DNA from: Escherichia phage vB_EcoM_SA21RB
Reading direction: 5' to 3' (one strand)
Sequence record: OL960580
DNA: 64,000 nt
The notes below the pieces were generated by a model. It saw nothing but the letters and a program-made list of their open reading frames with translations, did not search any database and was not told the origin of the DNA. Shown here piece by piece: positions 27,258 through 40,512 of this stretch. Made by a program: the position numbers and the translations under genes. Position 1 is the first letter of the stretch, and each line of letters starts with the position of its first letter.

Positions 27258-27795
27258 TTACTATTTCCAAAAGTTTATTATTTTTAAGGTAATTAGCCTT
27301 TTCTAGGACTTCAGAAGCATATTTAGAACCTGCTTTAACATTCCATCCCGAATTATAAGAGGATATTGCTTTTCTTATATCGCCCTTATGTATATTTAAC
27401 CAATAAGAAAGTTCAATGTACGCCCAGGAAGCTGAATTGGATCGTTTATTCAACATTCTTTTTATTTCAGCATCGGTCATATTATAACCAAGTTCCTTAA
27501 CTCTTGCTCGCATAGTAGGCAAATAATTTTGGAACATTCCATAAGCGTGATGCTTTGGTTTAGATTTTAAATTAACTCCGCCAGAGCTTTCTTGCCATAA
27601 AATAGCAGCCATTATATGACCTAATCCGCTCTTGTGGATATTTTTGTGTGTTTTATATTTTCCATCCTTAGAAAATTGTTCCCCGAATTGATACGCGTAA
27701 CGCATGTTATCGAGTTGGACATTACTGAAAGTATGCTCGGAGCTATGTGCCATCATTGAAATGGCCAATAGACCAGCGAGTAGTGCTTTTCTCAT
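27250..27795 (-). CDS. secreted lytic transglycosylase-like protein (SLT domain)
   Basis: 181 aa; signal peptide MRKALLAGLLAISMMAHS; ILWQESSGG...YGMFQ resembles the SLT catalytic-Glu motif. Confidence 0.55.
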   Translation of the reverse strand: MRKALLAGLLAISMMAHSSEHTFSNVQLDNMRYAYQFGEQFSKDGKYKTHKNIHKSGLGHIMAAILWQESSGGVNLKSKPKHHAYGMFQNYLPTMRARVKELGYNMTDAEIKRMLNKRSNSASWAYIELSYWLNIHKGDIRKAISSYNSGWNVKAGSKYASEVLEKANYLKNNKLLEIVND

Positions 27796-27802
27796 GCTTA
27801 CC

Positions 27803-28264
27803 TCATTGAGTTTTAATTACTGCTTTAGAAGCCTTTCCTGGTAAACGACGACTGTTAATAATTGCCATCCTGCATTGAAGCGACGGGTCTTTGAACTTCG
27901 CATTAGGTTTACAAACTGTAAATCCAAGCCAAAGATTTCCATCTGTGATTTCTAAACGTCCAGGACGATATTCAACCCCATCAATAAAATCCTCGTCAAT
28001 GTCAGGACGAGGAGGCATACTCAGGAATTCATTAACTTCTAAAACATGGTCTTTTATTTTATGGAATAATTCAAAAACGTATGTCTCATCAATCTCCCGT
28101 TGAATTGCACGATCAAGAAGATGTTGAGAATATTTTAGATGAAACGATGAGACCCCTGCTGCTTTTGATGCCTCACGAATCTCATTGTTAATTTGACGAA
28201 ACTCCGACTCAAAGTGACGACGAAGCTTATTTCGACGGATAAAAACTTCTGTGTTGATAGTCAT
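27803..28264 (-). CDS. regB: endoribonuclease RegB
   Basis: 153 aa; sequence MTINTEVFIRRNKLRRHFESEF matches T4 RegB; early promoter directly upstream. Confidence 0.88.
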   Translation of the reverse strand: MTINTEVFIRRNKLRRHFESEFRQINNEIREASKAAGVSSFHLKYSQHLLDRAIQREIDETYVFELFHKIKDHVLEVNEFLSMPPRPDIDEDFIDGVEYRPGRLEITDGNLWLGFTVCKPNAKFKDPSLQCRMAIINSRRLPGKASKAVIKTQ

Positions 28265-28287
28265 GTTATTCTCCTCTTAACTGATAG

Positions 28288-28322
28288 AAAAATTATACCA
28301 CAGTCAAGAGGAAAAGTAAACA
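28288..28322 (-). promoter_or_regulatory. T4 early promoter for regB
   Basis: minus strand GTTTAC ... TGGTATAAT, 25-60 nt upstream of regB. Confidence 0.65.
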
Positions 28323-28323
28323 G

Positions 28324-28602
28324 TTATTCTTTAAATCTAATCAATTTATTCATAGACTTTGAAACTTCTGCACGAACCTCATGTAGATTTTTGAGCTGTT
28401 CAAGGCGCTGCGTATAGTAAGCAATTTCATCTTCTTCGAGACAGTCCTGTGAATCTTCTTTAAGATAACGTGCATAGTCCTGGAAAGCGTTACGGATTAC
28501 TTCCTGGAAATCATCAAGACTTTGAATTTTCTTAGGAGCAGCAGATACACGACGAGGGGCAGTATAATACTCATAACCAAACCCTGCACTTAATTGAGCC
28601 AT
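28324..28602 (-). CDS. hypothetical protein
   Basis: 92 aa from internal Met [10 protein letters not shown] (track ORF starts 14 codons earlier). Confidence 0.4.
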
Positions 28603-28868
28603 TAATATTTTTCCTCTGGTTGGAACATTGCACGACAAGCCCACATACTGGCTTCTTTGAGTTTCGTTTTAGCAATAGTTAACTGATCGAGGCTTTCAGC
28701 ATAATTCTTCGCGAGTTCATCATCTTCACAGCTATCGAATGCTTCCCAGAATTCATCATATAAAGCATCAAAGATAAGTCCTAAACGAACTTCAGCGTCT
28801 TTGATAGCATTCACTTTACCGATTTTCTCTTCAGTATGCGGCTTATAACCTTTAATGTCTTCAATCAT
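28602..28868 (-). CDS. hypothetical protein (at the remembered position of T4 vs.4/Acb2)
   Basis: 88 aa from MIEDIKGYK; second ORF upstream of regB, where I recall T4 vs.4; sequence identity not verified. Confidence 0.4.
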
Positions 28869-29082
28869 ATTTGACTTCCTCACCAGTACATAAATCATAT
28901 TCAACTAAACGAATAGGTTCATGAATGCCATATCCCTGAACAGAAATTTCTGTCGTAGGATAAATTCCATCAATATCACCCATATTCCACGCTTCGTTAA
29001 ATTGCTGTTCGCCTGAATTACTAAACCACTCGGCGAAAGCATTTAGCACATCTTTAGAACCTTCAATAATTATCTTTGCCAT
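28861..29082 (-). CDS. hypothetical small acidic protein
   Basis: 73-aa ORF. Confidence 0.4.
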   Translation of the reverse strand: MAKIIIEGSKDVLNAFAEWFSNSGEQQFNEAWNMGDIDGIYPTTEISVQGYGIHEPIRLVEYDLCTGEEVKYD

Positions 29083-29444
29083 TACAAACTCTCGGTAAAG
29101 GTACGAGCGATAACGTCGCGCTGCTGTTCCGGAGTCAGAGAGTTAAAGCGAACTGCATAACCGGATACACGGATGGTCAGCTGCGGATATTTTTCCGGAT
29201 GCTTAACTGCATCTTCCAGAGTTTCACGACGCAGAACGTTAACGTTCAGGTGTTGACCACCTTCAACTTTAACTGTAGGCTGTTGCTCAATTTCAATTTC
29301 ACGGGCATGCAAACCGTAGAAAATTTCTGGGTCTACAAAAGAGTCCTCTTTAAAGGTTTTAGAGACAATAATTCGTGCTTGAATACCATCTTCAAAATAA
29401 ATAGTACCTTTATGTGTGCCTTCAAGAATTTGATATGCTTTCAT
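29082..29444 (-). CDS. autonomous glycyl-radical cofactor (GrcA/YfiD-like)
   Basis: 120 aa; C-terminal [25 protein letters not shown] is the glycyl-radical loop found in GrcA and pyruvate formate-lyase. Confidence 0.75.
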
Positions 29445-29451
29445 ATAAACC

Positions 29452-29778
29452 TCAATTAGAAAATAAATTTATCCAAGATTGTTCTTTAATTAAAAATGGC
29501 TCAGAATCATATGCCATTAAACTCTGCGTGATTAGTCCTTTAAAAGGTCCATCAATAAATTCCATGGTAAAATATGGAATTTTATTCATTAGCCGTGCAT
29601 TAGGAGCAGTACATAAAACTTTGCATCCTTTGAATACACCCTTTTGTAATTTGTATTGCTTGGGATAAAATTCGCTCAAAATGTTATTATTTGCTAAAAT
29701 TTCAAAATGATTCACCAATTTATTTTTAATAGTTTTTGGCGAAAAATAAAGATATTCGAAAAGCTGAGTGTCTGTCAT
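29452..29778 (-). CDS. hypothetical protein
   Basis: start placed at ATG overlapping upstream stop (caaTGATGACA); 108 aa. Confidence 0.45.
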
Positions 29779-30365
29779 CATTGCATTCCGATTACGAAAA
29801 ACTGTGGACGAGTAATACCGCCAATACAACATTTAATATTACAGCAGCAGTGTACGGTGTCAATATGGACACTATAAATCTTATCCATATCAGGAGATTT
29901 GACAGGCTCGTCAATTATATACAAAATTCGCGAAAGCGATAAACCTCTGAACTTGCTTCCTTTATTACCTATAAAACTGCGCACAGAATCAGTAAATAAA
30001 CGAAAACGTATATCATCATTAGAATAACGCGAAAATTCCTTTTTAATGTTATTTGCAGAAATTTTAGCGTAAGCTGAAGTATTAGAAAGAACAATAACTG
30101 TTCCACCGTCATACAACCAATTAGCGGCAAAATTAGTTACTGCAGTTGATTTACCAGATTGACGTCCACCATCTAGTCGAAGTGTGCAATACTGCTTAAG
30201 TAAGTCTTCAAATGGCGGGATATATTCGTTTTTACAAATTTCTTCTACTCTAGCGTCAGAATGGTGTGTAAAAGCATTCATCAGGGATAGATAAGGACCA
30301 GTTAAAAATGTTCTCATTTTCTTCTCTCTAAATTTGGGCCATTCCATGGCGCATGAATTGTCCAT
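29778..30365 (-). CDS. P-loop NTP-binding protein
   Basis: 195 aa; Walker A GGRQSGKST, Walker B-like LYIIDEP; cysteine cluster at C-terminus. Confidence 0.5.
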   Translation of the reverse strand: MDNSCAMEWPKFREKKMRTFLTGPYLSLMNAFTHHSDARVEEICKNEYIPPFEDLLKQYCTLRLDGGRQSGKSTAVTNFAANWLYDGGTVIVLSNTSAYAKISANNIKKEFSRYSNDDIRFRLFTDSVRSFIGNKGSKFRGLSLSRILYIIDEPVKSPDMDKIYSVHIDTVHCCCNIKCCIGGITRPQFFVIGMQ

Positions 30366-30470
30366 TTCTGTATTTACCCATTACCGCACTTGGGCTCGAC
30401 CTTATTACAGGTTGGCGGGAATCCCTCATAGAATCATGAGGTCCAGCTTGTTCCCATATTTCTTATTTGC

Positions 30471-30944
30471 TTATTTGAATGATTTGACGTACTGAATAGA
30501 ACCTTTACTATTCACGAAAGCGATTTTACCATTTTTATTATACATGGTAGCAGTACGCTGATAGCCATAAGTTTGTTTACCAGATTGATAACCAACTAAT
30601 GCGAAATTATCTTCACCCATTTTATTCTGTTTAGCGCGAATACGTTCATGACCGTGTGCCATAAGAACCTTAGCATCACCAGTTGCAATGGATCGACGAG
30701 TTTTTTCATCTTCAACTGTATTAACAAAGTCGTCAAATGAATCAAATTTAGCATGAGATTTATTATACAGTTTTCCATCTACTGCATAATTATATCCTTG
30801 TACATCCATCTCAACTTCTGTACCATCATCCAATACAGCAGTGATTTTCTGACCTTTTTTAAATTTCAAAAGATCAGTAAAAGATTCAGCAATAATTTGA
30901 GAATTAATAGCTGCTTCAGTAATAAATTCTTGATATGTTTTCAT
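30471..30944 (-). CDS. internal-protein-like protein with capsid targeting sequence
   Basis: 157 aa; N-terminal MKTYQEFITEA (T4 internal-protein targeting peptide with L/I-x-E cleavage motif); adjacent to ipIII. Confidence 0.65.
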   Translation of the reverse strand: MKTYQEFITEAAINSQIIAESFTDLLKFKKGQKITAVLDDGTEVEMDVQGYNYAVDGKLYNKSHAKFDSFDDFVNTVEDEKTRRSIATGDAKVLMAHGHERIRAKQNKMGEDNFALVGYQSGKQTYGYQRTATMYNKNGKIAFVNSKGSIQYVKSFK

Positions 30945-30985
30945 ATGTTTCCTTTAAATGTAAATAGGTCTGAGTATTAGCTTTA

Positions 30986-31567
30986 TTAAGAATTACCACG
31001 GGCTGCATTAGCAACGGCGTAAGCGTACTGAACATTAGCGTCTTTAAACGTACCTTTAGAGGTATCTAGTTCTGCCTTAAAGCCGCCTTTAGTCATAACC
31101 TCGGCGAATTCTTTACGGAAAGCCATTGCATCAAGGCTTCTCCATGATGATTTGTGCTTGGCGAATTCAAGACCAGCGTAGTTGACAGCCTTAGCTAATT
31201 TATTATCAATAACCCATTTACCAGATTTAGGCACAAACACCGGGCCTTTCTGTTTAGAGAATAGTTTTAAATTCCAGCGACGAAGGTCACCGTCAGCTTT
31301 AACAAAAGCTGCGTCCAAGTTACTAGCAACAACATCTTGAATATGACCAAATTTAAGCCCATCAACTTCAATATTTAAATCGGTACGCCAGCGAAGTCCT
31401 TCCCAAGCGAAGGCTTTAAAGTCGGAAGCCTTTGTAGCTAAGTACCGTTCAATAGGAGCTGTTTTAGGGTCAAAGCCGTTTCCCGATCGGTAGGTCCACT
31501 CATCTTTATTAATGCCTTTGGCCTTTACTACAGAAGCTTCGGCAATAAATTCTTGATAGGTTTTCAT
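30986..31567 (-). CDS. ipIII: internal protein III
   Basis: 193 aa; MKTYQEFIAEASVVKAKG targeting peptide and body matching remembered T4 IPIII; early promoter upstream. Confidence 0.85.
   Translation of the reverse strand: MKTYQEFIAEASVVKAKGINKDEWTYRSGNGFDPKTAPIERYLATKASDFKAFAWEGLRWRTDLNIEVDGLKFGHIQDVVASNLDAAFVKADGDLRRWNLKLFSKQKGPVFVPKSGKWVIDNKLAKAVNYAGLEFAKHKSSWRSLDAMAFRKEFAEVMTKGGFKAELDTSKGTFKDANVQYAYAVANAARGNS

Positions 31568-31661: not shown

Positions 31662-31662
<1 letters not shown>
31627..31662 (-). promoter_or_regulatory. T4 early promoter for ipIII
   Basis: minus strand GTTTAC ... TGATAGTATAT. Confidence 0.6.
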
Positions 31663-32630
<968 letters not shown>

Positions 32631-36100: not shown

Positions 36101-36108
36101 ATTTAAAA

Positions 36109-36672
36109 TTATTTATCTAGTTTAGTTATTATAGCTTCTGCGGCAGCTTTTAGCTTAGATGCGGTGTTAATACGATTTTTAATTTCAGTATACGCATCGC
36201 CAAGAACATCAAGGCTATCAGAATAAACACTTACACTATTGCGTTCGCTATTTGAAATAGAACCTTTAGTTTTACGATCAAAATCGGTGTACACGTCTTG
36301 AAGATCACGGGCTGCCTTCTTTGCATCATCCAATGCGTCAAGAGCTTTATTCAAAGCATTAACGTATTTTTTAGTGTCAAACATATTCTTAGAAATTTTA
36401 ACAGGTGCGCGTTCAGGAGTAGCTAATGTAGATTTAGGAACCTGAGCGCCAGATGCCAATTTCTTAGAAATTTTGAAAAACGCTTTATTGAATTTATTTT
36501 CTTGACTCATCGTAAAAGAACTATTATCGATGTTGTACATTTCAATAGCTTTAGCTTTCCACTTAAGAAAATCGCCGCGGTCTTTTGGGTCCAAGTGGAA
36601 GAATACTTTAGTAAGATCTGCTTCAGATGGTAATTTTGCTGCTTCGGTTAAAAATTCGGCATAGGTTTTCAT
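36109..36672 (-). CDS. internal-protein-like protein with capsid targeting sequence
   Basis: 187 aa; N-terminal MKTYAEFLTEAAK resembles the T4 internal-protein targeting peptide; terminator hairpin downstream. Confidence 0.55.
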   Translation of the reverse strand: MKTYAEFLTEAAKLPSEADLTKVFFHLDPKDRGDFLKWKAKAIEMYNIDNSSFTMSQENKFNKAFFKISKKLASGAQVPKSTLATPERAPVKISKNMFDTKKYVNALNKALDALDDAKKAARDLQDVYTDFDRKTKGSISNSERNSVSVYSDSLDVLGDAYTEIKNRINTASKLKAAAEAIITKLDK

Positions 36673-36762
36673 TTAAAATCCTTGAAATAATTTATCAGTT
36701 GGTTATTAATTATTTATTACTTTGTTATTATCCGTAACAGCATTCTCTATGTGATTCAAACT

Positions 36763-36789
36763 AAAAAGCCCAACCTTTCGGTTGGGGCT
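36763..36789 (-). terminator. rho-independent terminator (repeat copy A)
   Basis: minus strand AGCCCCAACCGAAAGGTTGGGCT + TTTTT; near-identical copy at 37321. Confidence 0.7.
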
Positions 36790-36796
36790 AAGAATG

Positions 36797-37270
36797 TTAT
36801 TTGATTTGTTTAGCAGACCAAATGCGGTCTTTGATGATTTTTTGAATGTCTTCAACATACTCTAGGTCATGAGCATGTGGGTTATCTTTGAAACTATAGG
36901 CACGGGCTAACTTTTGGCCTTCGGTTTTGATTACTAAAAGCTCTTTAAGGATAGCTTCATACTTAGCGATAATTCCTTTAACAATATTTTTTTCTTGTGT
37001 AGCTTTAGGATCTGCTTTAGGAGCAGGTTTACCCGAAGCCTTTGCAAAAGCAGCACCAGTAGCAACTAAACTTTTCCAGGCCATACTAACCGCATTTCCC
37101 GTAAATCCTTCTGCTTTCATGTCGCGAGCAAATTGGAATCGTGATTCGTCAGAAGCATCTTTATAGGAATATTTACCTGCTGCAATGGCTGCTTTTGCGA
37201 CAGCTTGAATTTCGGTGCTAGATGCTTCATTTAACACCGCTTCATTTAAAAATTGAGCATATGATTTCAT
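36797..37270 (-). CDS. internal-protein-like protein with capsid targeting sequence
   Basis: 157 aa; N-terminal MKSYAQFLNEAV; flanked on both sides by near-identical terminator hairpins. Confidence 0.55.
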   Translation of the reverse strand: MKSYAQFLNEAVLNEASSTEIQAVAKAAIAAGKYSYKDASDESRFQFARDMKAEGFTGNAVSMAWKSLVATGAAFAKASGKPAPKADPKATQEKNIVKGIIAKYEAILKELLVIKTEGQKLARAYSFKDNPHAHDLEYVEDIQKIIKDRIWSAKQIK

Positions 37271-37320
37271 CTTATTTCCTGTTTTAATTCGTAGATTTAA
37301 TATACTACTATATTTATACT

Positions 37321-40224: not shown

Positions 40225-40512
40225 TTACAAAAGATTTTTAGCAATAATCTTGAGATGTGCCGCAGAAATGTGTTTAGCTTTAAACAACGCAGTTTCTTCA
40301 GCAGGAGAGATAACGATTGTAGCACCATCCTTTTTAGCAGACCACCCATCGCCTAGGTAAACAGTACCTTTGATTTCTTCGCCATCAACCAGACTAATCA
40401 TTGGTTTACCTTCTCGTCCTTTATTTGCTTTAATAACTTCAGAAGTAAGAGTAGCTTCGGTAATAGTAGAAACCGGGGTAGTTGTAGAAGTAAATTCTTT
40501 GAAAGTTTTCAT
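40225..40512 (-). CDS. ipI: internal protein I (capsid-packaged, injected; inhibitor of a type IV restriction enzyme in T4)
   Basis: 95 aa; 19-aa targeting peptide MKTFKEFTSTTTPVSTITE followed by a 76-aa body, matching the remembered IPI precursor/mature sizes; directly upstream of 57B; early promoter upstream. Confidence 0.6.
   Translation of the reverse strand: MKTFKEFTSTTTPVSTITEATLTSEVIKANKGREGKPMISLVDGEEIKGTVYLGDGWSAKKDGATIVISPAEETALFKAKHISAAHLKIIAKNLL

Follow-up and report, generated by a model that had tools for sequence, protein, structure and literature searches.

Organization of the ip4 locus

The window analysed here, i.e. the whole 64-kb stretch of phage DNA, contains an ip4 (ipIV) gene at the ip locus, with vs.8 on one side and ipIII on the other, in the slot that is occupied by ipII and denV in T4 (Table 1). 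The original prediction placed a 157-aa open reading frame (ORF) starting with MKTYQEFITEA at positions 30471-30944; this is confirmed, and the strand, which had not been given, is the minus strand. The product begins at an ATG codon with the N-terminus MKTYQEFITEAAINS in the ORF listing of the window, and the translation of the ORF opens with MKTYQEFITEAAINSQIIAESF. An AAGGA ribosome-binding site is found at 30950-30954, with the ATG 5 nt further on, and an in-frame stop codon lies three codons 5' of the ATG.

The same prediction had put ipIII next to this ORF, which is indeed the case, and the lysozyme gene e follows. It had also reported that no denV-like ORF is found in the interval 29452-30471. 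In fact, this interval is filled by vs.7 and vs.8, whose products share 98% and 92% amino acid identity, respectively, with those of T4, and a tblastn search of the whole 64-kb window with T4 DenV gave no match at E ≤ 10. Phage T2 lacks the v gene of T4, a classical observation with which the absence of denV in this phage fits.

The locus had further been described as one that varies among T-even phages and encodes a capsid-targeted internal protein, and this view is upheld. Three layouts are recognized here: (i) e-ipIII-ipII-denV-vs.8 in T4; (ii) e-ipIII-ip4-vs.8 in the window, PST, ECML-134 and Shfl2; (iii) e-ip4-vs.8 in T2 and Bas43, which do not have ipIII beside ip4, whereas the phage studied here keeps it. 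By blastn, positions 27500-30459 of the window correspond to positions 1-2967 of the T4 locus, and homology is found again from 30973 on, immediately beyond the ipIII stop codon. The block at the right-hand junction, 54 nt long and composed of the 5' UTR, the ribosome-binding site and the first ten codons, is 96.3% identical to the 5' end of T4 ipII; moreover, 47 nt of it (30913-30959) match the 5' end of ipIII, with 89.4% identity for PST and 95.7% for T4. Thus only the body is exchanged, the denV and ipII bodies of T4 against the ip4 body, and this conserved leader block makes up one junction. The behaviour of ip loci as cassettes goes back to Repoila et al. 1994, as far as this work is cited in PMC12373910 and PMC3012670.

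Signals for the expression of ip4 were searched for as well. Perfect T4 late-promoter boxes (TATAAATA) are present in the locus only 5' of e, and the pattern search found none directly upstream of ip4 or ipIII; a dedicated late promoter of ip4 was considered and dropped, as no perfect TATAAATA lies between ipIII and ip4. Scans for sigma-70 promoters and terminators gave background level only. The boxes 5' of e are likely to be the source of read-through transcripts that would span e, ipIII and ip4, a co-transcription that we infer from the arrangement of genes and boxes.

The neighbouring vs.8 gene shows a change of frame with respect to T4: residues 1-39 of T4 Vs.8 match 30429..30313, and residues 26-219 match 30365..29781 in another frame. 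Judged by these matches, vs.8 of the window would be either shortened at its N-terminus, to the 195 aa of the PST annotation, or split; several small ORFs are annotated in this region of T2. Vs.8 (29778-30365, minus strand) carries a Walker-A-like motif, GGRQSGKST, and weakly matches AAA domains as well as the terminase large subunit in its N-terminal domain (Pfam E-values of 0.004-0.04; PHROG 2, E = 3e-6).

Table 1. Features of the ip4 region and of the other leader-bearing genes of the phage (positions in the window)
Feature	Position	Strand	Description	Basis
vs.7 and vs.8	29452..30365	minus		tblastn with T4 Vs.7 and Vs.8; PST annotation
Left-hand junction	30460..30470		Last position of T4 homology on the vs.8 side is 30459, at the denV stop codon and 12 nt from the ip4 stop codon	
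ip4 (ipIV) CDS	30471..30944 (stop codon included)	minus	157-aa precursor, internal head protein Ip4	ORF list, identity, Pfam, PHROG, dN/dS
Folded body, codons 21-157	30474..30884	minus	Predicted beta hairpins and three helices; basic, pI 9.3, 15.5 kDa	AlphaFold2 model
Flexible linker AAINSQIIAE, codons 11-20	30885..30914	minus	Second candidate protease site, IAE/S	Alignment, AlphaFold2 model
Capsid targeting sequence MKTYQEFITE, codons 1-10	30915..30944	minus	I-x-E/A prohead-protease site at its end	Read from sequence
Conserved block of 5' UTR, ribosome-binding site and capsid targeting sequence; right-hand swap junction	30913..30966	minus	Common to ip4, ipIII and T4 ipII	
ipIII	30986..31567	minus	Upstream neighbour of ip4, same strand; 92.7% amino acid identity to T4 IpIII	PHROG 5341
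Lysozyme gene e	31662..32156		Next gene upstream of ipIII	ORF list
Two perfect T4 late-promoter boxes, TATAAATA	32170..32190	minus	Upstream of e	Pattern search
Two paralogous ORFs	36109..36672 (187 aa); 36797..37270 (157 aa)	minus	Starts MKTYAEFLTE/A and MKSYAQFLNE/A, leaders of the capsid-targeting type	
ipI	40225-40512	minus	Product 100% identical to T4 IPI	PF11634

Identity and distribution of Ip4

The protein encoded in the window is 100% identical to the "IpIV internal head protein" of phage T2 (UniRef representative A0A2Z5WKT6_BPT2), and its best structural match in BFVD is UniProt Q38388, "Ip4 [Enterobacteria phage K3]", with 99% identity. The annotation Ip4 or IpIV is also found in PST, Shfl2 and ime09, whose proteins, like those of T2 and K3, have the same length and leader. 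The Pfam family PF24183 (DUF7412) covers the whole protein (residues 1-157 on profile positions 1-158 of 158; E = 5.7e-96, 319 bits against a cut-off of 27), as does PHROG 3155, 'internal virion protein' (E = 6e-102); a search of NCBIfam returned sub-threshold noise only. Judged by its sequence, the ORF is almost certainly Ip4 (IpIV), the T2-type internal head protein. The body, which had been taken for new and divergent, is therefore that of a known T-even internal protein, named though not functionally characterised. Ip4 has in fact been named since the 1990s, and both Pfam and PHROGs include it; as a sequence feature it is nothing new.

The exact sequence is already public, on 459 contigs. 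In a tblastn search of 50,697 phage records Ip4 was found in 470, against 198 for T4 IpII; at least 290 of them carry it at 99% identity or more, including T2, RB18, RB33, teqskov and HY03, and 160 further records, from T4-like phages of Klebsiella, Salmonella, Serratia and Raoultella, have it at 60-80% identity. When 1.84 billion representatives were searched exhaustively with a profile, only eight proteins were returned at E ≤ 0.001, and no cellular homologue. Three of the eight are near-full-length, distant relatives of the DUF7412 family (E-values from 3e-17 to 3e-22), and all three possess leader-like N-termini, for example MNFEQFLNE/S and MNFKDFLNE/S.

The surroundings of these three relatives were also inspected. 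A Logan contig of 2.8 kb (L003, ERR14707364), presumably from a distant T4-like phage, has four ORFs with leader-like N-termini (MNFEQFLNES, MNFQRFLNEA, MSFKKYLDEQ and MKFSEFLNES), one of which is a DUF7412 member; the contig represents a cluster of ip genes whose leaders follow another dialect. A metagenomic contig (L006, 139-1215) shows a distant DUF7412 gene directly 3' of a weak Pyr_excise (denV-like) ORF, and in L007 (4367-8557) such a gene has three GIY-YIG seg-like homing endonuclease genes around it, with Acb1/57B and dNMP kinase about 4 kb away. Since the distant relatives keep leaders and settings of this kind, DUF7412 appears consistently as an internal-protein family of T4-like phages.

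Leader and predicted processing

The leader of Ip4, MKTYQEFITE, differs at one of its ten residues from MKTYQEFIAE, the leader of T4 IpII and IpIII. The prohead protease of T4, gp21, recognizes the motif (L/I)-x-E. Ip4 contains two such motifs and no others, ITE/A (residues 8-11) and IAE/S (residues 18-21), both within the N-terminal 21 residues. In an alignment of 14 sequences of the Ip4 family (61-99% identity), E10 and E20 are invariant, and position -2 of the E20 site is always I, L or M.

For T4 IpII, cleavage of the homologous 10-aa leader is annotated (X04567.1), and by analogy Ip4 would be cleaved after Glu10. The motif at residues 18-21 suggests that a second cut, after Glu20, may occur, with a probability that we place a little short of even. 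Cleavage at Glu10 or Glu20 would leave a mature body of 15.5-16.5 kDa with a pI of 9.1-9.3, containing 22 Lys and Arg against 17-18 Asp and Glu residues, that is, a net charge of only about +4 to +5. It is very probable that Ip4 is packaged, processed and injected.

Body and predicted fold

The AlphaFold2 model of Ip4 (pLDDT 76, pTM 0.71) predicts a disordered stretch at residues 10-20 (pLDDT below 50) and an ordered body from residue 21. Two blocks, residues 47-67 and 105-131, are strongly conserved in the alignment of 14 sequences. An enzymatic reading of a 'HGHE' stretch was dropped, as its first His is not conserved (H/Y/F).

That the body does not resemble the internal proteins of T4, as had been noticed from the sequence, is borne out by all comparisons. 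A relationship to IPI* was considered at first, from a BLASTP match at E = 3e-4 and a match to PHROG 4363 (the IPI family) at E = 0.0077; both are driven by the leader, and leaderless Ip4 aligns with IPI* at E = 10, outside the IPI* family PF11634. T4 IpII aligns only weakly, over a stretch that takes in the leader (aa 1-75, 33% identity, E = 1.7e-4); the match of T4 IpIII is confined to the first 13 residues. PHROG 7857 (IpII) and PHROG 5341 (IpIII) are not matched by Ip4, which has no detectable similarity to these families beyond the leader. More generally, the body shows no resemblance in sequence or fold to IPI*, IpII, IpIII, any solved fold or any known inhibitor, and a profile search of PDB sequences gave nothing below E = 0.5.

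Selection on ip4

Between the window and T2, PST and Bas43, ip4 has 11, 15 and 14 synonymous differences and 0, 0 and 1 non-synonymous differences, respectively (40 and 1 over the three comparisons), which corresponds to a dN/dS of 0-0.02. The gene is under strong purifying selection. The value is comparable to that of the lysozyme gene e in the comparisons with T2 and PST (0.02-0.04) and lies far below that of ipIII (0.20). The low dN/dS, together with the full-length match to DUF7412, indicates that ip4 is a real, constrained gene and not a chance ORF.

Of the 193 residues of the adjacent IpIII, 14 are not those of T4 IpIII, and the protein evolves much faster than Ip4 or the lysozyme alongside it, as expected for an arms race with enzymes of the GmrSD-ECOR17 type.

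Other leader-bearing genes of the phage

The phage is a mosaic Tequatrovirus, and none of the records is 99% identical to it over 25 kb. At least five genes of the window bear leaders of this kind, those for IPI, IpIII and Ip4 and two paralogous ORFs, so that IPI and IpIII of the T4 type are present together with Ip4 of the T2 type in one genome. The two paralogues lie in a 1.2-kb insertion with respect to T4 (36101-37315), between e.8 and the rnaC/rnaD-tRNA region, with a perfect late promoter, TATAAATA, ahead of the pair at 37311-37318. Both match PHROG 2280, in which no function is assigned. The family of the 157-aa paralogue occurs in 511 phage records, and the protein is called 'hypothetical protein' in every related record listed. 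By their leaders the paralogues look like unrecognised internal proteins, and the insertion like a third ip locus.

Comparison with known internal proteins

T4 IpII, an inhibitor of GmrSD-ECOR21/BrxU, is encoded in the same slot and on the same strand as Ip4, with a nearly identical 5' UTR, ribosome-binding site and 10-aa leader. Given this leader block and slot, both proteins are presumably packaged, processed and injected. Their bodies are unrelated, that of IpII belonging to a protein of 100 aa against 157 aa for Ip4. Moreover, Ip4 is not a functional substitute for IpII, because T2, which has Ip4 and lacks IpII, is restricted by GmrSD-ECOR21.

IPI* of T4 (PF11634), an inhibitor of GmrSD-CT596, also resembles Ip4 in having a leader of the capsid-targeting type that ends in ITE/A and a small, basic, processed body (processing being, for Ip4, predicted), and like ip4 its gene is a non-essential accessory gene. 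A further parallel is Bas37_0260, which bears a capsid targeting sequence and is required for resistance to McrBC (bioRxiv 10.1101/2025.11.20.689424). It resembles Ip4 in that the same N-terminal packaging signal precedes a body not found in T4, and that its gene lies in a variable ip locus; this locus, ipI, is a different one from that of ip4.

Proposed role of Ip4

The following course of events is proposed. (i) Late in infection, ip4 would be transcribed along with e and ipIII, and its translation would start from a strong ribosome-binding site. (ii) The MKTYQEFITE leader, nearly identical to the capsid targeting sequence of T4, which has been experimentally defined, would direct the precursor into the prohead, to its scaffolding core. 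(iii) There gp21 would cut after Glu10 (ITE/A), and possibly after Glu20 (IAE/S), and the basic body of 15.5-16.5 kDa would be packed with the DNA. (iv) By analogy with other internal proteins, the body would be injected with the DNA and, once in the cytoplasm, would bind and block a host nuclease that attacks the incoming glucosyl-hydroxymethylcytosine DNA; the same analogy makes a type IV, modification-dependent restriction enzyme, outside the GmrSD variants tested so far, the likely target.

A packaged, processed and injected anti-restriction protein is thus the most likely role for Ip4 by analogy, and the leading hypothesis. Ip1, Ip2 and Ip3 are inhibitors of one GmrSD type IV enzyme each, a different one in every case and without cross-protection (PMC12373910); IPIII is active in the cytoplasm without its capsid targeting sequence (PMC9391042); and Bas37_0260, the fourth such protein, protects against McrBC (bioRxiv 10.1101/2025.11.20.689424). 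From these precedents we lean slightly towards an anti-defence role of some kind; that the target is a type IV restriction enzyme is more tentative, and we give it somewhat less than an even chance.

The original prediction had proposed the product of the ORF as a candidate injected anti-restriction or anti-defence factor. The proposal still leads, with one published result against it: Silas et al. 2025 assayed ip4-10 against their GmrSD systems and obtained no reproducible inhibition (PMC12373910, Supplementary Fig. 9). Their 'ip4' is presumably the Ip4 of the window, as suggested by the shared Repoila nomenclature and by Q38388. In addition, T2 is restricted by GmrSD-ECOR21 and GmrSD-ECOR17 (PMC12373910); as T2 carries an identical Ip4, neither enzyme is a target of Ip4. 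The near-invariance of Ip4 in Tequatrovirus departs from the pattern of a fast arms-race protein such as IpIII (dN/dS of 0.20) and also counts against the anti-restriction reading. The searchable literature, to which the original description of Ip4 does not belong, contained no report of Ip4 in virions or of its activity, and nothing on the function of Ip4, IpIV or DUF7412.

A rival reading is an injected effector with a target other than a type IV restriction enzyme, either another first-line defence or a conserved host factor exploited in the take-over of the cell. The tested GmrSD systems were negative, the predicted fold of Ip4 has no known relative, and identities of 61-82% in phages of Klebsiella, Salmonella, Serratia, Yersinia and Citrobacter suggest a target present throughout the Enterobacteriaceae. 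However, positive evidence favours no particular target of this kind, all four characterised proteins with a capsid targeting sequence counter type IV restriction, and the diversity of GmrSD far exceeds the 15 groups sampled (PMC12373910). We regard such an effector as unlikely.

Ip4 could also be mainly structural cargo, one of about 1000 basic internal molecules that neutralise the charge of the DNA and aid its packaging or ejection, without a specific host target. The basic mature body agrees with this, as do the contacts of T4 internal protein lysines with DNA phosphates (review PMC3012670), a sequence that is strongly conserved rather than diversifying, and a published GmrSD screen that gave no target. 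Against it, the small net charge and the conserved motifs in the two blocks, which fit a folded surface or core, do not suggest a generic polycation; ip genes are non-essential according to Silas et al. (PMC12373910); the combinations of ip genes at the locus differ among T4, T2 and the phage studied here, which argues against a fixed structural need; and all internal proteins with a resolved function are specific inhibitors. This makes a mainly structural role improbable. It is extremely improbable that the leader is a relic and that Ip4 stays unpackaged and acts only within the infected cell, because the leader and the invariant Glu10 are kept across the whole family, distant relatives have CTS-like leaders (CTS, capsid targeting sequence), and over its 54 nt the leader block has 96% identity to its T4 ipII counterpart.

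The anti-defence hypothesis can be taken further: once injected, Ip4 would inhibit a host immunity factor outside the tested GmrSD variants, through a fold that has no known relative. Taken as a whole this is rather doubtful; the immunity factor might be a type IV enzyme not sampled so far or another first-line defence common to the Enterobacteriaceae. Ip4, for which the searchable literature contains no published target, is, if injected as predicted, among the commonest injected proteins of T-even phages, and the presence of Ip4, IPI and IpIII in one genome could guide the choice of strains in the hunt for its target. If the hypothesis is true, a conserved target would account for the near-invariance of Ip4 within Tequatrovirus and for the 61-82% identity that is kept in phages of Klebsiella, Salmonella and Serratia.
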